DNA of 64,000 nt from Candidatus Spongiisociaceae bacterium (GTDB lineage: Bacteria > Actinomycetota > Acidimicrobiia > Spongiisociales > Spongiisociaceae), in NCBI GenBank assembly GCA_965202665.1, contig OZ241841.1, positions 352,001 to 416,000 on the forward strand. Direction: 5' to 3'. Position 1 is the first letter of the stretch. Each line of letters starts with the position of its first letter. This document shows positions 8,095 to 38,600 of the stretch, one piece after another. The position numbers and the translations under genes were made by a program. The notes beneath the pieces were generated by a model that was not told where the DNA came from, searched no databases, and worked only from the letters and a program-made list of their open reading frames with translations.

Positions 8095-9194
8095 TGGCCA
8101 AGCACCGGGGAAGCGGGATTTCCGCAATCGAGTATCCGACGGGGATGAACCAGAACGGGGACCCGTCCCAGGCGTGGATCAAGGTCAAGCCCGACGGCCG
8201 GGTGGACGTGTTTTCCGGCACGGCCGACATCGGCAACGGGGCGAAGACCATCCAGGCCCAGATCGTGGCCGATACCGTCGGAGTGCCCTACGACTGGGTC
8301 ACCTTCGACAATTCCAACACCGATTCGTCTCCGGTGTGCACCGGCACTTTCGCTTCCCGGGCCACTTTCGTGGCGGGCAACGCGGTGTTGAAAGCGGCCC
8401 GGCAGGTGCGGGAAAAGTTGCTGGAAATCGCGGGCAAGGAAATGGAGATCAGCCCGGAGGATCTGGAAATAGAGGACGGGCGGGTGACGGTGAAAGGCGA
8501 CCCCGGCTCCTCGATGGACGTGGCGGAGGTGGCGGGGGCGGCCGCTTTCGGACACGGGATTCTGGTGACCGGCACCGGGGCCCAGTTGAACCCTTATGCG
8601 GCCATCACCGACCCGGAAACCGGCGAGGTGGACGGCCCTCCGCACGCCGCCATCTCCTATGCGGCCTGCGCGGCGGAAGTGGAAGTGGACGATGAAACCG
8701 GGCAGGTGACGGTGCTGAAACTCACCCAGTCCTACGATGTGGGCCGGGCCATCAACCCGGCTTTGGTGGAAGGCCAAATCCAGGGCGGGGCGATTATGGG
8801 CTTGGGCCTGGGCGTGCTGGAAAACTCCTATCCTTATTACCCGTCGGTGGATCACCGGGGAAGCCAGTTCGGTTCCTACTACGCCCCCAGCCCGCTGGAC
8901 ATGCCGGAGATGCACACCATCATCATCGAAAACCCGTCGGCGGACGGCCCCTACGGTGCGAAAGGCATCGGCGAGATGGCCAACAACGGCCAGCCGGGGG
9001 CGATAGCGGCGGCGGTGCACGACGCCATAGGAGTGTGGATAACCGAGCTCCCCATAACCCCCGAGTCGGTGTTGCGGGCCCTGGACAAGAAAGCAACCGG
9101 AGAGCACGAACCCCGCCGTGAAGGCAAAATGGTAATCTTCGACGAAGACATCTCCGTAAACACGGTAGCCGCCGGCATCAGCTGGACCCCGTAA
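8094..9194 (+). CDS. Xanthine dehydrogenase-family molybdopterin-binding subunit, C-terminal half
   Basis: DIGNGAKT, GTFASRAT, DVGRAINP..VEGQIQGG, GAKGIGE. Confidence 0.9.
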   Translation: MAKHRGSGISAIEYPTGMNQNGDPSQAWIKVKPDGRVDVFSGTADIGNGAKTIQAQIVADTVGVPYDWVTFDNSNTDSSPVCTGTFASRATFVAGNAVLKAARQVREKLLEIAGKEMEISPEDLEIEDGRVTVKGDPGSSMDVAEVAGAAAFGHGILVTGTGAQLNPYAAITDPETGEVDGPPHAAISYAACAAEVEVDDETGQVTVLKLTQSYDVGRAINPALVEGQIQGGAIMGLGLGVLENSYPYYPSVDHRGSQFGSYYAPSPLDMPEMHTIIIENPSADGPYGAKGIGEMANNGQPGAIAAAVHDAIGVWITELPITPESVLRALDKKATGEHEPRREGKMVIFDEDISVNTVAAGISWTP

Positions 9195-10035
9195 AACCCT
9201 CCTGCCCGATCGCGGAACAGAGCTCCATCATATCCGCAAAAGGAGCAACAGAAAAGTTGACTATTGTACTATAACTAGCCATCTGACGAATCATATTCTG
9301 AACATTCTTTTTATTTAACTTCTCCATTCGCTCATTAAAGAAAGAAAAAATAGTAGCCAAGGCCCTTGGCTCATTCATAACAGCAAGTCTTTTGACTAAT
9401 TCCTCCGCCAATATTTCCCAAACCTGCGAAGGATGAAGCATACTATGGATAGTTTCAAAACTCAAATGCTTTTCGGAGGTATCTGCAATACGACCGGCCA
9501 TTCTTACTCTCCACCACACCCTCGCTAATGGGCAATTTACTAACACGGAAACCTTTCCTCTAACATGCGGCAATCCACCCAAATAACGACAAATATTACG
9601 AGCGGTCCTATCATTGTCATCTTTCTTAACCAATCTACTTGCCCACCCTTCCTCTAACAGTTCTTCCTCTGCCCAAATAATATGCATCGCTGTCCAAAAA
9701 GCGGGACGCATTGCGTCAGCCGCGCTAATAGCACCAAACTCTCCGACTATTTCTCGTTCCAATTCCACCGGGACACATCGAGCCTCATCAACAGTCAGAC
9801 GACGTACAAGCAAAGGTATTTCCTTTGTTGCCTCAAGAATTTCGTTTCTGCTCTTGAAACCCAACTGCTCTCGTAGGTATTCAACCAATGCAGATATACC
9901 CTCACCTGCCGCAATTGCCAGCTCAGCCTGCCTCTGATGGAGTTCCTTGTCGTCACTCTGCTTTCCTTTTTTCACCACCACCCGCTGTTGCCAGGATGCC
10001 ACCGCCTCCTCAAAATTTTTTGTGATCATTATCAT
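9178..10035 (-). CDS. Hypothetical protein with LARVWW motif (possibly DUF6339-like); last gene of the low-GC island
   Basis: 285-aa lower-GC ORF, ATGA-coupled to the upstream gene. Contains RPAFWT and NCPLARVWW. Family resemblance is from memory and unverified. Confidence 0.7.
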   Translation of the reverse strand: MIMITKNFEEAVASWQQRVVVKKGKQSDDKELHQRQAELAIAAGEGISALVEYLREQLGFKSRNEILEATKEIPLLVRRLTVDEARCVPVELEREIVGEFGAISAADAMRPAFWTAMHIIWAEEELLEEGWASRLVKKDDNDRTARNICRYLGGLPHVRGKVSVLVNCPLARVWWRVRMAGRIADTSEKHLSFETIHSMLHPSQVWEILAEELVKRLAVMNEPRALATIFSFFNERMEKLNKKNVQNMIRQMASYSTIVNFSVAPFADMMELCSAIGQEGFTGSS

Positions 10036-10808
10036 TCTCCTTCATCTATTGGCAGTAACAGTTCGAGACAAGTAGCAGCCGCCGCAGGATCATAATCTTC
10101 GGCGCACCAATCGGATACTCCCTTTTCATTTAAGCGCAAACTGATTTCTCTGAGAATCCGCGACTCATCCGGGTTTTGATATTCAGGATCGAATTTTGCC
10201 AAAGATCCTATCAAGGCAGCTATCCACACATCCCGCCGCTGCTGTATTTCTTTATGAATATCCTCAGCTAAATATACTGTAAATTTGATATGTTCGTTTG
10301 GTCCTTCAATTCTCATCGTCCCTGGTCTTGCTTTATCATCACGTAAGAATTCCAACATTGATGACAGCAAAGGTTCGGCAGAATAGATAATACCTTTTGC
10401 CAAGTAAGTACCTTCGACAAAAGTCAAAATTTCCTTGTCATTACCTTGCCAAACTTCATTAAAATACTTGGTTGGTATAGTCAGTTGCTTAACTACTACC
10501 AAACCAGAAATAATAAATACAGGAAGATGCCCACCAGTTTCGTTGATATCCCAAGAAACGGTAGTAACAGTATCCTGTGTCTGGTAAGATTTGGAGTACA
10601 GAGCTGCGGGAGAGCGAATCTCGATAATCCACTTTGCCTTGCCTTTGTCTACTAAACTATGCAAAACATCAGCATTAGAACCCTCAAATCTATTCGTCAC
10701 CAGAGCCTCCCCACCTCTAGTAGGCTGAACCTCGTTTTCATACTGAATGTCTAGAAAATCGGTACTTTGACCATCTGCACGGAGCATCGGACGCGAATAT
10801 GTTTTCAT
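10032..10808 (-). CDS. Hypothetical protein (island gene 3)
   Basis: 258-aa low-GC ORF with ATGA overlaps on both sides; N-terminal YSRPML...DF. Confidence 0.75.
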   Translation of the reverse strand: MKTYSRPMLRADGQSTDFLDIQYENEVQPTRGGEALVTNRFEGSNADVLHSLVDKGKAKWIIEIRSPAALYSKSYQTQDTVTTVSWDINETGGHLPVFIISGLVVVKQLTIPTKYFNEVWQGNDKEILTFVEGTYLAKGIIYSAEPLLSSMLEFLRDDKARPGTMRIEGPNEHIKFTVYLAEDIHKEIQQRRDVWIAALIGSLAKFDPEYQNPDESRILREISLRLNEKGVSDWCAEDYDPAAAATCLELLLPIDEGE

Positions 10809-12648
10809 TTTCGAACTACCAAATCAACAGCCAACACACCCTCCCCTATTCGAACAGGATGCTTTAATTTGACAACAAGTCTACCAAATCTTTCTGTTTC
10901 TACCTCGTATGGATCTGATTGCCGTGTTTCATCACATGCCACAATTTGAAAAAATTTATTGGCGAGCAACTCATCACATGTTTCATCCGAGCCCGTCTCT
11001 CGCAACACGCGCACACCTAATTTAGGATAAGTATGCTCACCAATATAACAATCAAAACCAACTATTTTGCCATTTTCTATTTTTTCCCGAGCCGAAAAAG
11101 ATACCTTTGCCGGTCTGCCTCTCTTCGCACGTCCAGCTGGTACATCAGGTTTCTTTGGCGGTACCCCCGTCTTGATATCATTACCATTTTTTCCCGTACG
11201 GCCACCACCCTCGCCTGGTTCTTCAACAGGCTTAGGAGTACGAGGAGGCGTACTAAGTGGCTCTGCTTTGACAACAGTACCAGAAGGAAAATCCGCAAAG
11301 CCAGCAGGGATAAATATCTTGCCCCTCGATTCTCCTACCTGTTCTTTCAACAAATTACAAGTTTCTAAAAGCAAACTTTCCAGTTTCTTTTTCTCCCGAC
11401 TGTTCAAATTACTTAAGTCAATTGCCATATGATCAGTACCTTCTGAACTTCGTATCAACTGATATAACTCGCTTGGCGAGTCTTGGGGATCAGGTAAAAT
11501 CACTGCATCAAATTGTTCGTAACCGGCAAACTTTGGAGGATCGAGATGAGGAGATTCCCAAGTGATCCACATTCCTTCTCTAAAAATATTAACACGGGTG
11601 TTCTTCTCCCTATCCTTAAGGAGACGAAACTTTATCAAAGTACCCATATCATGCTTTAAATTTTTACCTTTGACTATTGTCTGATAGGCTCGGTAAGCTA
11701 ATCCTTCTGGGAATGAACAATTTTTGCTACGAGAAACAGCACCAGATGAATCTAAAAACGACTTCACATTGCTGTTATCAACTCTTATGAGATTGTTGCT
11801 CTCTTGATCTAATCGGTTGTCGATCGAGACAGTCATTCTTTTATCAAGAATAGCAGCCAAAAAGTGCGAAGCAGACACTTTATAAATTTGTTTCATTGCA
11901 TAATTTGAATCTTCTCCAAAAAAATTGAATCCCAATATCGCCACTACCGTCCCAGTGCCACTTATACTTCTAATCTCTTTTGACAGTATCTTAGGTGACT
12001 CTGTTAAATATTCAACGCTACTATCAAATAGATCCAGTTGTTGTTTTTTTCTTAGGGCTAGAGTACCTTTGGCGGAAAGTGGTCCATTCCTCCCCCCCCC
12101 CCCATACGAGCAGCTAGTATCGCTCTACCTGAACCGGTAAAACCACTATCGGTCTTACCTCCATAAACAACATATCGTAAATCACTGGCTGCGAAAGCAG
12201 TAAGGTGGCCTAAACCGACCGAACCAGCTCCCTTCTCCGATTTATCCGTATTTCCTTCACTTAGTAGTCTATTCATCGTATTTCCATCGATTCCTATACC
12301 GTTATCTCGACAAAACAGTACGGGAATTTCACCACCTTGCATAGCAGTTTCTATCCGCTCACATATTTTCACATCTTGTTGCGAAAGTTGATTGTGTTGC
12401 TGGCGTTGTTCACGGGCAGATCTAAACGCTTCCAAGTAATCTTTCCAGGCTGGAAGATCCTCGGTGGCAACTATATCGATAGTAAACACTACATCTACCG
12501 AGTCGGTATCACGGTGACGAGCGTCCAAGCAGTTCTGGAGCAACTCGCGTATGACGGGCTCGGCATTCCCTCTGCTGTGAATATTGATCTGGCTGGTGGC
12601 AAACCCATCGCTGGTTTGCTCTTCGGGGAAAATAAGTTTCTCAGCCAA
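10805..12648 (-). pseudogene. GHKL (HATPase_c/MORC-like) ATPase, about 614 aa, frameshifted at a G12 tract (phase-off allele or sequence error)
   Basis: The 12058-12648 ORF has RELLQNCLDA, DNGIG and GAGSVGLG (N, G1, G2 boxes). Adding one G at 12092-12103 gives an open read-through RNGPLSAKG...GTGTVVAILGF (G3 box) into the 10805-11944 ORF. Confidence 0.8.
12092..12103. repeat. C12/G12 homopolymer at the frameshift site
   Basis: tccccccccccccat on the + strand. Confidence 0.9.
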
Positions 12649-12666
12649 CTTTCAGACCTTCCTTGC

Positions 12667-13908
12667 CTAATCCGTACAGTCGCAAACGGGCGTACCGGTC
12701 GCCCCCGGAGCGCGTTTGCGAAAATTGCCAGCCCGCACTTGGGCATACGAAGGGGCGCCTACCCCCAAGAACCCAAACTTGGTAGTTCCGGTTCCGTCGC
12801 GACGGGTGGCCTCCCTCCGGTATTTCCGTTCTATTGTCTCCCACCATACTATATCTGACGGGGTTCCGTCAATTCGTTGTGGGTCGTCAATCTTTGTCAA
12901 ACGAACCAGCTGGTTGGTTCCCTTCATGAAGCAGAACGTACAGTTGCCCGCCTCGGCGGGCATCGACAAATCAAATGGGGCGTTACGCCAGTAATCGTCC
13001 ACCTCCTGTTTGGTGAAACCGGAATCGGCTAGAGGAAAGTGGGGGTGCTCCCCTCCCGGCTGGGATGCCGTACCGCACTGCTGACTGGACGCACCCTCGG
13101 AGATGAACGTTCTATCCAACACTCGGTTAACTCTCCTAATCTCATCGGAGCGTAAGCCCAGCAGCGTAAGATGATCAATAGGAGGGCGACCCCACAAACC
13201 TTCGCCTGGTTGAGGCGGATTTGTTATAGGAACATCAGTGAAATCATTCCACTTCTGTTCATCACGGGCTGATGGCTGGTCGAGCATGAATTCGGCCCGT
13301 CGCATAAAATCTACTCTTCTAGCCGTACCTCCCCTCTTCTCATATTCATCGGCCACGAACTCCGAGGACAGGTAGGGCTCATCCCTGTAGTGCCCTTGAT
13401 GGGCCGGACCGCCGCTTCCGCTGAACCATTCTTCAAGCAACTGATGGGCGGGTTGCAACTTTAGCTTGTACGTGCAGGAGCGTTGTCTCGGATTCGGCAA
13501 CATCTGCTGGAAGGAAAGCATCTCCTCAAAAACCTCTCCCCGCCAGCGGTAACCCTGCGGATGCTCTTCTACAGGCAACCGCTTCACCAGCCGAAAGGTT
13601 GGACGGCGACGGTAACCATAGTACGTTGCGTCCTCCACTGTACAGAATTCGTACCAAAGAACCGGCAGGCCATGCTCCACCTCCAGCAACCGGCTCACCT
13701 GGTCAGCGAACCGATAGGTGGCGGGATGCTCGGCGCTGGTGTTGGCGAAAAGGACCAAATCCCCCCGACTCGGATCAAGGGTTCGGCTCTCCGCCAACGC
13801 CACAGCGACAAGGGCCGACGACCGCCCACCGGAAAATTTGACGATGTGCGGCATCGCGGCATGTCGCGGATGCCGATATCTGACTTGGACTGCAGGTATT
13901 TTTTTCAT
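12667..13908 (-). CDS. PAPS-reductase/adenine nucleotide alpha-hydrolase family protein with Cys clusters
   Basis: PP-loop VKFSGGRSS, FANTSAEH, RSCTYKLK, GLRSDE-RR, FPL, GNCTFCF, terminal CDCTD. Start placed at ATG 13908, just downstream of a promoter-like element. Confidence 0.82.
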   Translation of the reverse strand: MKKIPAVQVRYRHPRHAAMPHIVKFSGGRSSALVAVALAESRTLDPSRGDLVLFANTSAEHPATYRFADQVSRLLEVEHGLPVLWYEFCTVEDATYYGYRRRPTFRLVKRLPVEEHPQGYRWRGEVFEEMLSFQQMLPNPRQRSCTYKLKLQPAHQLLEEWFSGSGGPAHQGHYRDEPYLSSEFVADEYEKRGGTARRVDFMRRAEFMLDQPSARDEQKWNDFTDVPITNPPQPGEGLWGRPPIDHLTLLGLRSDEIRRVNRVLDRTFISEGASSQQCGTASQPGGEHPHFPLADSGFTKQEVDDYWRNAPFDLSMPAEAGNCTFCFMKGTNQLVRLTKIDDPQRIDGTPSDIVWWETIERKYRREATRRDGTGTTKFGFLGVGAPSYAQVRAGNFRKRAPGATGTPVCDCTD

Positions 13909-13917
13909 TGCCCGGGG

Positions 13918-13945
13918 ATTGTAGGCATGCCGCAAGCATATGCAA
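13918..13945 (-). promoter_or_regulatory. Putative sigma70 promoter for the island operon
   Basis: TTGCAT-N16-TACAAT on the minus strand, 9 nt before ATG 13908. Confidence 0.45.
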
Positions 13946-14250
13946 GGCATTTCGACCTTCCAGGCGGCTAGGTGGGCAACGACGCAGGTGGGCCGCTCAA
14001 TTCTCCTTTGCCGATTCCGCCGGTTCGCCTTCATCAACTGGAGGGGCCTGTGCTTTTCGGCCTGCTCCCCTAAGCCGCCGTTGTCAGCAGGCGGAGCAAC
14101 CCCGTTTTCGGATGGCGCGGTGGCAGTGGAAACTTACCGGAATCCCCCTCATGGCCGGATGGCGTAATGACCGGCGTGGTCGGAGCGGTGGGATCACGCT
14201 TCCCCGGGGGGTGGGGGCGGAAAAGGGCCGCTGCTTCCGAATCATCATAT

Positions 14251-15290
14251 CTAGGGGCCGACTGGTCGGAACTGCAAGGGGACGGACGGCGGTAAAAGGG
14301 TCGCCCCTTCCGAATCATCATATACGGCACCTTCGGATATATAAAAATCCTGCAGGAAGTTAGCGTCGGTTACCAGCATCGGAAGGTCTTTGTCTATGCC
14401 TATACGGCCTTCGGTGATTGTCATCCTTTTACATCTGCTTCTTTCACTTTTCGGGTTAGCTCAGCTAAAGGAATATTCAAACGAGCGCGTTGTTCATCTG
14501 TTCGCGCATATCTAATATCCGCCGCAACGGCCCTAATTTCATCTGATCTATTTCGTTGGACTGACCAAACAATAAAAAAACCTCCAGCGTTCCAAGATTC
14601 TACCGCTAACGTGAAAGGTAAATCTAGAAACAAAACCAACTCTCTCCCTTCAAAAGCATTAGCGGTTCGGGCTCTCGGATCATCGAGATGTTGCGTTGCC
14701 TCCTTAATGCTTTCCAAATTGTTAACATCAATTCCCCATAGGTTTTCTCTGTGTATAGACACCGTTAATATTGGGGGACCCGACCCAACCATATATTCAC
14801 TTATTGCTAAATCAACAAAGCAATAATAGTGGTAAAGTCCATTAATATCTTTACGCATGTATTTAGCTGGTATGAATAGATATGCAGCGCAACGAGTAGT
14901 ATCAGGGACTACAACTCCTCTAACAACTATATGAGGGGTATATCTTGCATCGTATCCTTCTCTGATCAACAGTTGCTCAAAAGTAATCTCATTTGCTGTA
15001 GGCAAATAGGGAGGCGCAGCGTTAACGGATAGCATTTCTACTCTAGCCAGAAGCTTTTTTGAACAAGGGTCTTGATTACCAAATTGAACAGTACAGGGAG
15101 GGATAACTCTGTCTAAATACGACACCTGAGGCCTTTTCATACTACGAACCTTATTCCCAGTGAACAACGACGACACCGTATTTGTAGTACTCTCACTCGG
15201 GGAAAGGTCGGTTTGCCCGCCGCAGGACAGCGCTAGCAAGGTTGCCCCAGCCAACAGCAGGGAGATGATCGCTCGGCGGCCTATTCGCAT
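14251..15290 (-). pseudogene. Orphan Cys-motif lipoprotein paralog 1, frameshifted near 14425
   Basis: Lipobox LALSC; YLDRVIPPC, PHIVVRG, TTRC-AY, YYCFVD, EYMVGSGP. After the stop at 14421 another frame continues ITEGRIGIDKDLPMLVTDANFLQDFYISEGAVY, matching the 39086-40504 paralog. Confidence 0.8.
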
Positions 15291-15312
15291 GGAGATTCTC
15301 CCGACACGGTCC

Positions 15313-17550
15313 CTAGTTCCAATGCCAATTCCAGGCAGTGTCGTCTTTCAGCAGGCGGGACTCCGATCCGTCCCGTTTGGCCATCCACAATTCGCCGTCC
15401 AAGCCGTAGGCCACCCATTCCCCGGTGCGCGGCCACTCCACTCGGTGGGTTGAGTCGGCAACGGCTACCAGGCGCGGAGGCGAGCCGTCCGCCGCCGCCA
15501 ACCACAACTCATCGCCCACCTGTCTTCCGGCAGCGTCCCGCTTCTCCGACCAAAAAGCGATCATTTCCCCATCCGACGACCAGTACATGAAAAGGATGTT
15601 GCCCAAACCCCCCGCCAAACGGCGCCGGTCGGAACCATCGGCGTCGGCCAGCCACAACTCGTCTTCCATCCAGATGCCCTGCGCGTTCCGCACCTCCGTA
15701 ACGTAAGCCGTCTTGCCCCCATCCGGGGATTCTTCCAGAATGACCGAGCCGGGGAACAGGGGAACGTGGCGGCGTTGATTGGAGCCGTCCTCGTCCGCCT
15801 CCCAAACCCCTCTGTCGACCGTCTCCCCTTCTTCGTTCCGTTGCACCGCCGAATATCGGACGGTCCCGTCATCCGACCAACCGAACCCGGTGTAGAACCA
15901 TTCCCCATCGGAGGGGGCGGTCAGACGGCGCCGCACCCGACGGTCCGCATCCGCCGTCCACAGGCGGTAGGCGTGCAGCCAGTATCCGTCTTCATCGTAG
16001 ATCGGTTCCCGAAAGGCGATGCTTCCCCCGCTCGGCGACCACCTATACCCGCTGTGAAAGTCGCTGACGTCGTCGGCCAACTTGTAGGGCCCGGCTGAGC
16101 CGTCCACTTCGATCATCCACAATCCCGTTTCTCCGGTCCGCTTTCCCCTCTCGTCGACCTGTTCCACCTGATAGGCGAGCCTTCGCCCGTCCGGGGACCA
16201 CTTGTAACGGAAGAAAAAGTCTGGGTTTTCCAGCAACCGGCGCGGCCCGCCCCCGCTGAAATCGGCCACCCGCAGCCCGGTCAGCGTCAGCGGCAGGGAG
16301 AAACCCACAGCCGGGTTCCCGTAACCGGAGGCGGCGGGGAAGCCGAAGCCGGAAAATGATGCGGCGGCGCCCTCGGGGGAGGCGGGCTCCGATGCTTCTT
16401 CTATCAGATACGCCAAGCATTTATCACCGTGGGAAAACTCGTATCGCTCTAAGAAACCGTCCAAACTGAGCAAACGCCGCCGGCGATCCGCGTAAAAGTC
16501 GTAAGACCAGACCTCCGTCCCCGTCAACTCCCCGGCGGCGTCCCGCGCGATCGTTGAATATTTGATGGTTCCCGCGCCCCGCGATGTCAAAAAAGTCCAG
16601 CCGTCGGCGGAGAGGCGGCGCGGACGCAAATCCGGCCCCTCGTACACCCACAGTTCGCGGATCCCCCGCCCGCCGTCGGCAAGCGTTCCCGTATAGGTGA
16701 GGATGTCCCCCGACCACCACAGGTCGTTTCGCCACTCCCCGACGGCGTGTTCGCCCAGCATCCGGGTCTGCGAGGTTGCGGCGTCGAACACCCAAATCTG
16801 CTCGCCCCCGCCGTCCCGCGCGCTGTAGGCGAGGGTCCGGCCGTCCGGGGACCACCGCCAGTAGTAGACGTTTTCGGTCAACCGGCGGGGCTCCGAACCG
16901 TCCGTTCCGGCCACCCACAGTTCCCTCCGCTGGTCGGAATGCAATTCGTAGGTGAAAAAGTTGTTTTCCGGGTCGCCCCGGTTGATGCGGGCCAGCTCTT
17001 GCGCCCCGGCCCGCATGAACAAGGCCAGGTCGGCCCGGCTGGCCCCCTCCGGGAAAGCCCGCCCCACCACCGCCGCCAACTGACCGCCCGGCACCGCCCC
17101 GTCCGGCCGGAAAGACCCATCCGGATACCCCTCGAACCAGCCGAAGTCGGCGGCGTATAGAATGTCCCAACTCTGGGGGTTGCGATATGTGACATCGGCG
17201 AACACCGGCCATTCGCATCCGGGCCCGCCCACCGGATCCCGGCCCAACGTCCGTACGCCGGCCAGCATAAAGGAGGCCAGGTCGGCCCGGCTGGCCCCCT
17301 CCGGGAAAGCCCGCCCCACCACCGCCGCCAACTGACCGCCCGGCACCGCCCCGTCCGGCCGGAAAGACCCATCCGGATACCCCTGAAACCATCCCCGGTC
17401 GGCGGCGAACAAAATGGCCTCCCTTTGCGGATGGGAGGCGGGGACGTCGGAGAACCGCTCCTCCCCCCCGGCGGTCCCCGCGGCGAGCGTCCCGGCCGCC
17501 AACCCCGCCGCCAGCAACGCCCCGGCCGCCCGCGCCGCCCCGCCTTTCAT
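15313..17550 (-). CDS. Secreted S-layer homology (SLH) domain protein with TolB/PD40-like beta-propeller repeats
   Basis: Signal peptide; FSDV...GWFQGYPDGSFRPD twice; repeated LW-A-ADGS..RRL and WSPDG motifs. Confidence 0.85.
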   Translation of the reverse strand: MKGGAARAAGALLAAGLAAGTLAAGTAGGEERFSDVPASHPQREAILFAADRGWFQGYPDGSFRPDGAVPGGQLAAVVGRAFPEGASRADLASFMLAGVRTLGRDPVGGPGCEWPVFADVTYRNPQSWDILYAADFGWFEGYPDGSFRPDGAVPGGQLAAVVGRAFPEGASRADLALFMRAGAQELARINRGDPENNFFTYELHSDQRRELWVAGTDGSEPRRLTENVYYWRWSPDGRTLAYSARDGGGEQIWVFDAATSQTRMLGEHAVGEWRNDLWWSGDILTYTGTLADGGRGIRELWVYEGPDLRPRRLSADGWTFLTSRGAGTIKYSTIARDAAGELTGTEVWSYDFYADRRRRLLSLDGFLERYEFSHGDKCLAYLIEEASEPASPEGAAASFSGFGFPAASGYGNPAVGFSLPLTLTGLRVADFSGGGPRRLLENPDFFFRYKWSPDGRRLAYQVEQVDERGKRTGETGLWMIEVDGSAGPYKLADDVSDFHSGYRWSPSGGSIAFREPIYDEDGYWLHAYRLWTADADRRVRRRLTAPSDGEWFYTGFGWSDDGTVRYSAVQRNEEGETVDRGVWEADEDGSNQRRHVPLFPGSVILEESPDGGKTAYVTEVRNAQGIWMEDELWLADADGSDRRRLAGGLGNILFMYWSSDGEMIAFWSEKRDAAGRQVGDELWLAAADGSPPRLVAVADSTHRVEWPRTGEWVAYGLDGELWMAKRDGSESRLLKDDTAWNWHWN
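17022..17384. repeat. 111-bp identical direct repeat (17022-17132 and 17274-17384) encoding the SLH motif
   Basis: Two exact copies 252 bp (84 codons) apart. Confidence 0.88.
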
Positions 17551-19378
17551 ACGACGACGATCGTAACGTGGATGTTGCGCACCGGTGAAGGCCGGCGCAC
17601 GGCCCGTTCCATGGAAAAGTCCCCCGCCCAGCCAAGCAGCCGCTCGGCGGGATCATCGGCCGCTTCCACCCACAATATTCCGTTTTCCTTGTAGGCGATG
17701 TTTCCGCCGTCGGGGGACCATTCGTACGGCTCCCCCCTGTCCGGCTGATGCGTCAAACGGCGCCTCTCCGACCCGTCGGCCGCCGCCGACCAAACCTCGT
17801 CCCGTTCCCCACTCGCCCAGTAGGCGATGCGCTTCCCGTCCGGCGACCACCTAACTCGTTGAATGTGGGAGATCGCCCCGGACAAACGACGCTGGTTGGA
17901 GCCATCGGCGGCCGCCGCCCGCAATTCGGTTCCCACGTATTCATCGTCTTCGTTCCGCACCTGCACCAAGAAGGCGATGTCCTCCCCGGTGGGCGACCAT
18001 CCCCACCATTGGTTGTAACTTAAATGGTTGTCCGCCAAAAGGGCCGTCTCCCGTCCCCCGGCCGCTACCCGCAACTCCCCGAACACCTGAAAAGCGACGC
18101 TTTCCCCGTTCGGCGACCAATCCCACAGCCCGGAGGAACTCAGATTGTCGCTCCACATAACCGGTTCCGACCCGTCCAAGGCCGCCACGTACAACTGCTG
18201 TTTGCGGGGAATGCGCACGCTTCTTTTGTAGGCGATGCGCTCCCCATCCGGCGACCAGCGGAAACCGCTGAACCCCGCCGAATTTTCAGCCAGCAACCGG
18301 GAACCCGACCCGTCCGCGTTTTCCGCGCGCAACTGCGTTCCCCTCCAGTAACCGTCCCGGTCCCGGGTAGCCGCGACGTAGGCTATTCGCTCCCCGTCCA
18401 ACGACCAGGTCCAGTGGTAGTCGCTGTCCAGCAAATCGGTCACCAACCTCTTGCCCCTCCCGTCGTACGCCGCCGTCCACAACTCATATGGGTTGTTTCT
18501 CCCCGTGCTGTAAGCGATGAAGCCGCTCAACCCCCATTGCCACGACCGGGGACCGGTCAAGTCGCTGGTGAGAAGGCGGTGGTAGGAACCGTCGGCCGCC
18601 GCCGCCCACAATCCGCGTCCCGTCGGCTCGCCGTCCGCTCCCCGCAGCACCGCTTCGTAAGCAATGCTTTCCCCGGAGGGGGCCCATTCCCAGTCGCCGG
18701 TGGCCCAGCAGGTTCCGTCGTAGACAAGATGTTCGCTCACCCGGCGGGGGGCCGACCCATCCGTACCCGCCACCCACAATTCCGACCCCAGCCATTCCCC
18801 GTCCTCGTCCCGGACGCCCTTCTCGTAGGCGATGTTCCCGCCGTCGGGCGACCATCTCCAGAATTCGGGCGTATGACAACGACTCTGGTCCAAGCCTCCC
18901 ACCAACCGGCGGGGCGCCGTCCCGTCCAATCCCACCACCCACATTTCAACCGCTTCCCAGGCACTTTCCTCGTTTCGTATTACCACTAAGTAAACGATCT
19001 TTCCCCCATCCGGCGACCGCGAAAAGTCCAATATTTCAACCGGGTCCTCCACTAATCGAACCGGTTCCGTCCCGTCCGCTCCCGCCGCCCACAGCTCAAC
19101 CCCGCCCGGGACCCGCACTGCGTAAACCAAAAGATCGTCCTTTGGCGAAAGGGCGGCCGGATCGCCGCCGTTCGGAGCCGGCGCGGAGGGGAGGGTGGCG
19201 GCGCCTTCCCGCATGAAAGCGGCCAACTCGGCCCGGGTGGAACCGGATGGGAAGGCCCGCCGCAACACTTTGGCTATCTGAGCCGGGGTTACCGTCCGTT
19301 CGGGCCGAAAGGTACCGTCCGGATAACCCTGAAACCACCCCAGCTGAACGGCGACGACGATGTCCAGCAGGGCCCGTC
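17547..19378 (-). pseudogene. SLH + beta-propeller (WSPDG repeat) surface protein, 5'-truncated
   Basis: The frame extends upstream of 19268 as DIVVAVQLGWFQGYPDGTFRPE, then hits TAG TAG inside lipoprotein-derived DNA. No signal peptide. About 9 WSPDG-like repeats. Confidence 0.75.
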
Positions 19379-38585: not shown

Positions 38586-38600
38586 CCCCCCCCCCCCCCC
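38586..38600. repeat. C15/G15 homopolymer in SAM-binding motif I of the DUF1156 MTase
   Basis: 15 consecutive C on the + strand; G14 would restore the frame. Confidence 0.9.

Follow-up and report, generated by a model that had tools for sequence, protein, structure and literature searches.

A candidate phase-variable DNA-sulfur operon linking a PAPS-reductase-like enzyme to a GHKL ATPase in Candidatus Spongiisociaceae

The window analysed here is a 64,000-nt stretch of contig OZ241841.1 from a Candidatus Spongiisociaceae bacterium. It contains a 4.7-kb operon of four minus-strand genes in the order g1, g2, g3 and g4 (Table 1), and the coordinates confirm the layout described in an earlier note on this DNA: four co-oriented genes, an 18-nt gap, two ATGA overlaps and a 3' end overlapping a convergent gene. 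The latter, which ends at 9194 and shares its last 17 nt with the g4 stop region, is molybdopterin-binding and xanthine dehydrogenase-like (PF20256); the flanks comprise a molybdopterin enzyme together with surface proteins. The low GC content initially attributed to the whole operon holds for g2-g4 (42-45%, against 62% for the whole window) but less so for g1 (56.5%). The proposed promoter stands in part: the element is visible by eye and its TACAAT is kept in a same-genus genome, but its -35 is not kept there and a consensus promoter scan did not call it, returning one other site (0.3+/-0.6 in shuffles). We treat it as weak evidence, possibly for a near-leaderless transcript.

Table 1. Features of the g1-g4 operon (window positions)
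Feature	Position	Strand	Remarks
Promoter-like element TTGCAT-16 nt-TACAAT	13945-13918	minus	9 nt before g1 ATG; identified by eye
g1	13908-12667	minus	413 aa; followed by 18-nt gap to g2
g2	12648-10805	minus	frameshifted; ATGA overlap with g3
g2 5' part	12104..12648	minus	carries the N, G1 and G2 boxes; starts at TTG, preceded by a AAGGAAGG ribosome site
G12 run	12092..12103	minus	frameshifts g2 (OFF state); likely phase-variation switch
g2 3' part	10805..12091	minus	G3 box, transducer region, low-complexity linker, C-terminal domain
g3	10808-10032	minus	258 aa; ATGA overlap with g4
g4	10035-9178	minus	285 aa

The operon is real and its four-gene grouping goes beyond chance: the complete set was present in 73 of 80 related loci, and three more loci stop at a contig edge. 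Linkage of the PAPS-like gene to the other three (hereafter the triad) in other genomes, on which the earlier note had staked its proposal, is tight. When the GHKL gene served as query, a g1 homologue was present at 16 of 22 true matches, the distant metagenome matches L132-L134 being excluded from the linkage count as unrelated GHKLs; linkage also survives reordering, with the g1 homologue downstream of g4 in L121 and L128. Five or more phyla of sponge-type bacteria share the set. The distribution of g1 is patchy, 3 of 40 relatives having it. A search of 401 genomes of the phylum, run at a stricter first-look setting, retrieved the window genome and one weak match only, while a PDC-M33A search over 151 genomes of the class gave three other weak N-terminal matches (0/14 in controls). 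Triads devoid of g1 are found as a second copy in the window genome and in L054 and L112.

The g1 product is a PP-loop ATP pyrophosphatase of the PAPS-reductase fold and the predicted writer. Its PP-loop motif, SGGRSS, occupies residues 26-31, and each of the other motifs previously listed (RSCTYKLK, GLRSDE, GNCTFC and a terminal CDC) is present. Five cysteines are invariant in 14/14 sequences of both subclades: C145, C323 and C326 are likely 4Fe-4S ligands and the C-terminal C409/C411 a likely sulfur-accepting dyad, an arrangement that matches the three cysteines plus dyad described for DndC (PMC10853773). The PADLOC SspD model recognizes g1 (E 3.6e-11, 41 bits) and 39/39 of its homologues (best E 9e-12), far below true SspD. 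By hhalign, host SspD aligns to g1 with a probability of 95% and host DndC with 3%; the DndC model did not match g1, which is far from DndC, and BrxP was reached at E 0.03 only. The structure model (pLDDT 85.5) has FAD synthase, APS/PAPS reductase, NcsA, TtuA, GMP synthase and LarE as fold neighbours at Z 8.7-10.3; two of these, NcsA (Z 9.4) and TtuA (Z 8.7), are 4Fe-4S thiolases. Foldseek with this model gave no match at E<=0.001, and a PDB sequence search nothing useful. A sulfate-assimilation CysH is ruled out, since the PAPS_reduct match fails its cut-off (E 0.009) and the neighbourhood lacks cys genes. The closest outside relatives are phage NinC/PAPS-like proteins, whose activity is not known (PMC11437467). 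They resemble g1 in the GLRxDE and NCxxC regions at about 30% identity and are shorter; none of 13 viral loci has a triad gene.

The g2 gene encodes a GHKL ATPase. The boxes reported earlier were found, as ELLQNCLDA (35), DNGIG (115), GAGSVGLG (140) and, past the frame break, GTGTVV; but g2 is not a single ORF, its frame being broken by the G12 run. R-E-x-x-Q-N and D-N-G-x-G are invariant in 51 homologues. So is the cysteine (51/51; codon 10978-10976) of a D-x-T-C motif in the C-terminal domain, which is found only in g1-linked GHKLs: it occurs in 108 of 133 full-length representatives of the clade versus 0/9 methylase-clade GHKLs. Against PDC-M33A (PDLC04582), the 5' part scores E 1.9e-18 and the 3' part 5e-5; the 3' part had no plasmid match. 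The g3 product is a divergent PDC-M33B and a predicted adaptor: its own match is weak (E 1.7e-4), a sister-clade copy in L121 reaches 5.3e-8, and hhalign with canonical M33B spans 217 columns (probability 24%, E 8e-4). It has no Pfam domain, and its Atlas clusters are unnamed. The all-helical g4 product is predicted to be a divergent DUF6339/PDC-M33C protein and a targeting subunit. It carries ARVWWR, agreeing with M33C in RxWW motif and position; its DUF6339 match lies below the cut-off (E 0.0026; 8/55 homologues at E<=0.01), M33C matches 1/55 homologues (hhalign 34%), and its structure model (pLDDT 94.7) has an uninformative best Z of 6.0. Motif, domain and PADLOC searches of g2-g4, and a structure search with g4, found no nuclease motif or fold.

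In gene order and in these matches (M33A, M33B and, weakly, M33C/DUF6339), the triad corresponds to PDC-M33, a phage defence candidate of PADLOC (Payne et al., bioRxiv 10.1101/2024.01.29.577857). The operon had been considered undescribed; since the triad is already catalogued, its novelty is limited to the combination with g1. Searches of the open literature found no description of this combination, nothing on PDC-M33 or DUF6339 by name, nothing joining NinC with PAPS reductase or phosphorothioation (PT) with GHKL and cysteine desulfurase, and, among the papers listed, nothing joining PAPS reductase with GHKL. Apart from g1 and D-x-T-C, the g1-linked clade differs from PDC-M33 in mostly missing a ~75-aa upstream gene, found in 1/103 loci. 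It separates from the methylase-linked clade with an SH-aLRT of 99 in a quick tree whose 'Halo_dcm' label was assigned by eye.

Partners of the triad vary. The window genome also encodes a canonical M33A copy (E 3.7e-74) and a triad partnered by a second, unrelated PAPS-like enzyme; PP-loop enzymes were recruited on two separate occasions. GHKL triads with an RLWW motif beside cytosine methylases, which the earlier note had mentioned, do exist: 5 of the 8 plasmid M33 triads examined adjoin such genes, and the suggested replacement of the methylase by a PAPS-like enzyme holds for this reason. Among 103 loci, Dcm was matched once, 4 kb away, and an MmeI-like gene once, both outside the operon, which also lacks the DNA methyltransferase and nuclease of methylation R-M and Mza-type GHKL systems. 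Some triads adjoin complete type II R-M systems, which suggests that the triad is dispensable for writing there. Such loci, together with triads lacking any writer, would suit a stand-alone guard or abortive-infection system residing in modification loci, with g1 as a captured phage-type sensor, antidote or passenger and no mark at all. In the main text of the bioRxiv paper, where M33 is unnamed, PDC candidates are presented as found through their embedding in other systems, and extra DUF6339 paralogues could be sensors. We nevertheless consider this reading very improbable: it sits poorly with the 73/80 linkage, a desulfurase inserted between g1 and g2, the two PP-loop recruitments, a fusion described below, and phase-variation runs shared by the genes.

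These runs are illustrated by the window itself, where 12 G end g2 at 196 aa, and 10 or 13 G would give 613/614 aa. Four of six sequencing runs (X2, X4, X5 and X7) have the in-frame G13 and two (X1 and X3) G12; the two lengths coexist in a single sample (X1, X2) and also differ between studies, and the same-genus genome has an out-of-frame G11. These lengths come from contigs and could still be in error. G/C runs lie in or just upstream of the operon in 36/80 loci, and frameshifts affect g1 in six loci and g2 in three besides the window; in L084, L085, L086 and L088, g1 is frameshifted and g2-g4 are intact. The G12 run is likely a phase-variation switch, with the reservation that out-of-frame calls in G runs can be sequencing errors. 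A plain pseudogene or assembly slip is ruled out as the whole story by the concentration of G/C runs in the operon across loci.

The cited literature describes four PT routes: Dnd, Ssp, BREX-4 and Tdp. That the operon is none of the first three, as originally stated, is borne out by its missing partner genes: tblastn with host genes found dndBCDE and sspCD in 0/103 loci, with one SspB piece in L054. Dnd (with PbeABCD) shares the scheme of an enzyme, an ATPase, a small DNA-binding subunit and an optional desulfurase, as well as the cysteine pattern and downstream Pbe genes, but the operon has no match to DndC, DndD, DndE or DndB. Ssp has in common the PP-loop enzyme nearest SspD, a desulfurase partner, and two neighbours, PbeA and one 695-aa gene; it differs in that g1 scores 41 bits with the SspD model versus 358 for the host's true SspD, that SspB (DUF4007) and SspC are missing, and that the ATPase is GHKL, not P-loop. 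In BREX-4, BrxP likewise is a PAPS-reductase-like enzyme in the methylase's place (PMC12839542, PMC12914056), but no PglZ, BrxC, BrxL or DUF4007 was found among the operon ORFs. TdpABC (An et al. 2025, cited in PMC12914056), as far as it is described there, resembles the operon in placing a single PP-loop enzyme beside an ATPase module, and differs from its four genes, GHKL ATPase and lack of a recognizable nuclease.

In that same description, TdpC makes PT by itself, and g1 might accordingly write alone, g2-g4 being a reader or effector that blocks unmarked invader DNA or aborts infection and accepts methyl or sulfur marks; this corresponds to the restriction-modification-like module of the earlier note. 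The constancy of triad order against a writer that varies in position and type would fit, as would the lack of other effectors near most loci and the contigs of runs X4, X5 and X7, in which g1 is near-identical and the triad about 80% alike. We regard this as unlikely. The loss of g1 seen beside intact triads should be lethal or costly to a restriction module acting by itself, unless g1 were needed for assembly or the frameshift were polar, and triads without g1 raise the same objection. No nuclease was recognized in the triad. Moreover, in P0272 a DUF6339 domain is fused to a PAPS-like enzyme, albeit of the second PAPS-like family and not that of g1. In favour of the triad belonging with the writer, the g1-g4 co-fold gave 'weak support' (score 0.48 versus 0.00 for the best control; 0.00/0.48/0.71 in the individual runs, with contact agreement of no less than 0% and a partner pLDDT of 78 or more), a mark reached by 116/157 solved and 2/215 mismatched pairs, and at 0.60 or under by 18/157 solved pairs and both mismatches.

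Several neighbours point to sulfur. An IscS/DndA-like cysteine desulfurase directly follows the g1 homologue in 6/103 loci (5 distinct), and the window genome encodes DndA/SspA/IscS-like genes. PbeA lies downstream within 3.3 kb in 6/80 loci, abutting g4 in L048 and L052; in the window genome it follows dndE and lies one gene after sspD. SBD-HNH is near the operon in 8/80 loci and DUF262 in 17/80, and 55/80 loci and the window have none of the three within 3.5 kb; these are raw counts, and the six Pbe-linked loci are kin. Sponge metagenomes are generally rich in PT genes (PMC5099237). A sulfur mark is thereby supported. Desulfurase adjacency is rare, however, and any Fe-S enzyme depends on a desulfurase, whether or not the sulfur goes on to DNA. 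The four products might then form a complex of other chemistry, making a thio-base (TtcA/TtuA-like) or a non-sulfur, adenylation-driven change, with the desulfurase only building Fe-S clusters. The fold matches (Z 8.7-10.3) do not tell PAPS reductase from tRNA thiolases, GMP synthase or LarE, and the phage relatives, the cytosine base methylase as alternative partner and the two PT systems already in the host lean the same way. With SspD as the best family match and PT-linked Pbe and SBD-HNH as neighbours, we nonetheless think it improbable.

The reading we prefer, with roughly even confidence, is that g1-g4 form one phase-variable DNA-sulfur writer, probably of phosphorothioate, in which a GHKL motor replaces DndD/SspC and effectors are encoded separately. 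The earlier proposal of an R-M-like module with a non-methyl mark survives in the absence of a methylase partner, and the mark can now be narrowed to sulfur; the triad, however, resembles a writer part more than a restriction partner, because it has no recognizable nuclease and is intact where g1 is frameshifted. The DUF6339 fusion, D-x-T-C and frameshifts striking g1 or g2 alike also make it look more like part of the writer. Counting against a single writer are the definition of PDC-M33 as a candidate in its own right, the triads that lack g1, the host's dnd and ssp clusters and the distance of g1 from DndC.

Under the preferred reading, a desulfurase (encoded next to g1 at some loci, and here supplied by the host as IscS/DndA/SspA) would load the 4Fe-4S cluster on C145/C323/C326 and, by analogy with DndC, place a persulfide on the C-terminal CxC. 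The site would be recognized by g4 and g3, as the DUF6339-PAPS fusion and multiple g4 paralogues suggest, and the g2 GHKL would clamp and remodel the duplex in the manner of DndD/SspC, with the C-terminal cysteine peculiar to its clade possibly relaying sulfur. g1 would then adenylate the phosphate and swap in sulfur, as DndC/TdpC would predict. Separately encoded Pbe, SBD-HNH and DUF262 proteins would read the mark in self/non-self defence, and G-run slippage would switch marking on and off. A motor core able to take PT enzymes or methylases has a precedent (PMC10853773).

More tentatively, and with somewhat less than even confidence, we propose a GHKL-driven PT route: a GHKL-M33B-DUF6339 core with interchangeable writers, spread over sponge-symbiont phyla, repeatedly equipped with poly-G/C switches and giving a first function to the NinC-like PAPS reductases of phages. 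The place of the writer would be taken by a cytosine methylase or by one of two PP-loop sulfur enzymes of phage type that are unrelated to each other. Such a route would have been missed because the published PT search demanded a P-loop NTPase neighbour (PMC12914056), and g2 is of the GHKL fold. The reading is directly testable: the operon spans 4.7 kb, in-frame alleles occur naturally, and LC-MS and iodine assays are standard. If true, it would give a role to the defence candidate PDC-M33/DUF6339, offer a handle on the PAPS-reductase-like genes that are widespread in phages, and bring phase variation into sulfur marking in the form of a phase-variable sulfur epigenome.

Re-reading the window sequence bore out the four genes, spacings and motifs of the earlier note: g1, a PP-loop enzyme; g2, a GHKL ATPase, whose motifs correspond to the named GHKL boxes; and the small genes g3 and g4. 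The 3' end does lie over a convergent host gene (a 17-nt overlap with a molybdopterin-enzyme gene), and the low GC attributed to the operon stands for g2-g4 (42-45%, window 62%), g1 being higher at 56.5%. Over three rivals we favour reading g1-g4 as one phase-variable sulfur writer, probably of phosphorothioate (PT), which we give about an even chance and whose enzymatic steps we infer throughout; the operon is predicted to work like known PT systems. Judged by membership criteria it belongs, as had been claimed, to neither Dnd, Ssp nor BREX-4 (PMC12839542 for BREX-4, and PMC12914056 for Tdp and the P-loop criterion for PT systems), and literature searches found no description of the four-gene system.

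GTDB genomes gave 115 relatives of g1, and the loci of the best 80 were retrieved: 73 hold all four genes, three stop at a contig edge and four are without some parts. By their labels these loci cover Actinomycetota, Chloroflexota, Gemmatimonadota, Acidobacteriota and Verrucomicrobiota, yet g1 occurs in just 3 of 40 close relatives, the pattern of a mobile cassette. A GHKL-alignment query, built from g1-linked copies and so not fully independent of g1, gave 22 true members among 25 metagenome matches (some rows duplicates); 16 have a g1 homologue, and five of the other six are cut by contig ends. Operon parts are present in sponge and marine metagenome runs, and g1 follows g4 in L121 and L128. 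Outside its own clade, g1 is related to phage NinC/PAPS-like proteins; Aliarcobacter butzleri and Campylobacter isolates also carry homologues. The host genome is a single contig of 2.77 Mb. Upstream of the operon lie a 289-aa gene, which matches five or more paralogues in the genome, and genes for S-layer-homology/beta-propeller proteins; the same neighbours flank it in the same-genus genome, where the nearest g1 relative was found.

Coordinates of the operon and associated features (G000, host genome; C1, its contig; L, fetched loci)
Feature	Coordinates	Strand
Operon g1-g4	window 13908-9178	minus
G12 run in g2	window 12103-12092	
289-aa gene, S-layer-homology/beta-propeller genes	window 14421-19268	minus
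Contig match in runs X4, X5, X7	window 9641-12329	
X4 comparison, g1 side	window 12424-14500	
C15 run	window 38586-38600	
Canonical M33 triad	C1:2345875-2349447	
Canonical triad to second triad	G000:C1:2345875-2356411 (L094:4875-15411)	
ssp-pbe cluster (L135)	G000:C1:1377735-1391536	
695-aa gene	L135:10280-12367	
dnd-pbe cluster (L136)	G000:C1:1413428-1424610	
~75-aa gene	L102:5768-5998	
~75-aa gene	L103:5771-5998	
~75-aa gene	L105:5739-5972	
~75-aa gene	L108:5728-5958	
~75-aa gene	L121:414-632	

The g1 protein matches the SspD model (E 3.6e-11) and BrxP (0.03) but gave no DndC model match; hhalign gave 95% to the host's SspD and 3% to its DndC. Its predicted model (pLDDT 85.5) resembles FAD synthase, APS/PAPS reductases, GMP synthase, NcsA, LarE and TtuA (Z 8.7-10.3, rmsd 3.2-4.2 across 158-191 residues), matches that settle the predicted fold, not the reaction. 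C145, C323, C326, C409 and C411 are kept in 14/14 sequences from two subclades; DndC has three Fe-S cysteines and a sulfur-accepting dyad (PMC10853773; for DndC chemistry, PMC6435447).

An IscS/DndA-like desulfurase comes immediately after g1's homologue at L116/L117 (an identical pair), L126, L131, L077 and L128; in four of these five distinct loci it lies inside the operon. PbeA follows within 3.3 kb at 6/80 loci, an SBD-HNH 'phosphorothioated DNA-binding restriction endonuclease' occurs at 8/80 and DUF262 genes at 17/80, and 25/80 have one or more of these types no further than 3.5 kb away; these are raw counts, and the Pbe-linked loci are kin. DndCDEA is linked with PbeABCD (PMC6459918). 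A search of these loci turned up no dndBCDE or sspCD, so the operon takes the place that dnd or ssp has before pbe in the host's own clusters. Counting against sulfur, Pbe-type modules also partner methylases (PMC10853773), and sponge metagenomes show an enrichment of PT genes (PMC5099237). A chemistry other than PT seems unlikely to us. The small host genome combines Dnd, Ssp and two M33-PAPS loci: complete-looking sspABCD (sspB with a G11 run) and dndABCDE, with PbeA, PbeC and a small gene after each. Where sspD gives way to pbeA lies a gene of 695 aa; it weakly matches MzaA (E 7e-7), and its homologues adjoin the four-gene operon in 8/103 loci.

Genes g2 and g3 are divergent PDC-M33A and PDC-M33B, and g4 is probably a divergent PDC-M33C/DUF6339; PDC systems number 145 candidates, M33 being unnamed in the main text of Payne et al., though the supplements may bear on it. 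A TdpC-like writer with the triad (g2-g4) as effector is a minor possibility: no nuclease is recognisable in g2, g3 or g4, and g1 is out of frame beside intact triads in L084, L085, L086 and L088, two facts that put the triad on the writer's side and not in opposition to it. The g1-g4 co-fold scored 0.48 against 0.00 for the best control (contact agreement at least 0%, partner pLDDT at least 78), graded weak support; the mark was reached by 116/157 solved and 2/215 mismatched pairs, 18 of the 157 and both mismatches lying at or below 0.60. The C-terminal cysteine is invariant in g1-linked GHKLs (51/51), and D-x-T-C occurs in 108/133 full-length representatives against 0/9 methylase-clade copies, though ancestry alone may account for this. 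In metagenome runs X4, X5 and X7 a contig carries near-identical g1 (16 differences in X4) with g2-g4 about 80-93% alike, and the triad seems to have been exchanged by recombination behind one and the same g1. In L077 two versions of the operon stand one after the other, a desulfurase accompanying one of them, and g4 has further copies; g4 is also repeated in L039 and L041.

The cytosine-methylase neighbourhood of GHKL triads suggested in the earlier note proved sound. The host's canonical M33A retrieved 26 plasmid records; of eight examined, five have an annotated cytosine methylase nearby (the Synechococcus one overlaps the stop codon of DUF6339), one lies between adenine-methylase genes and two are without annotated methylase. 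Dcm occurs in 1/103 g1-clade loci, 4 kb away. The host's canonical triad is followed by a distinct phage-type PAPS-like enzyme, which the g1 profile fails to detect, and its GHKL clusters with methylase-linked GHKLs outside the g1-linked clade (SH-aLRT 99, in a quick tree with long branches and a provisional root), suggesting that a PP-loop enzyme was taken up on two occasions. In P0272 this distinct PAPS-like enzyme (58% identity) is fused behind DUF6339. That the operon is instead a guard without a DNA mark we consider quite improbable. The canonical triad, its GHKL holding an in-frame G12 run, converges with its PAPS-like enzyme on another triad, of g2-g3-g4 type and lacking g1; three tandem DUF6339 genes lie there in opposite orientation. 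Directly 5' of GHKL in methylase-linked triads and L121 is a conserved gene of ~75 aa, with no match in NCBIfam or PADLOC and missing from the window's operon.

Poly-G runs are tied to phase variation in R-M genes. The G12 run splits g2 into a 196-aa piece, from which the G3 box is missing, and a remainder of 428 codons; with 10 or 13 G the gene would encode 613/614 aa. Six metagenome runs have contigs bridging it, with G13 in X2, X4, X5 and X7 (three studies) and G12 in X1 and X3; X1 and X2 are one sample, X1 is possibly the source of the window, and X4, X5 and X7 carry a diverged allele. G/C runs of at least 9 occur in or just 5' of the operon at 36/80 loci (404 kb), at eight or more distinct positions, against 20 such runs across 1,144 kb of flanking sequence (binomial p 2e-9, a value that kinship makes too strong). 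Among 14 scorable mid-gene runs nine are out of frame (six in g1, three in g2) and five in frame. Exact lengths may be sequencing errors; placement is not. Genome-wide there are 865 G/C runs of length 7, 96 of 8, one of 9, none of 10 and 75 of at least 11, several long ones falling in sspB, canonical M33A and genes that by eye are methylases. Several of the 75 lie in genes that, again by eye, resemble DNA methylases (type I, type III and others) or specificity subunits, and a C15 run seems to frameshift a methylase-like gene. Runs of at least 11 possibly mark a large set of contingency genes in this organism.
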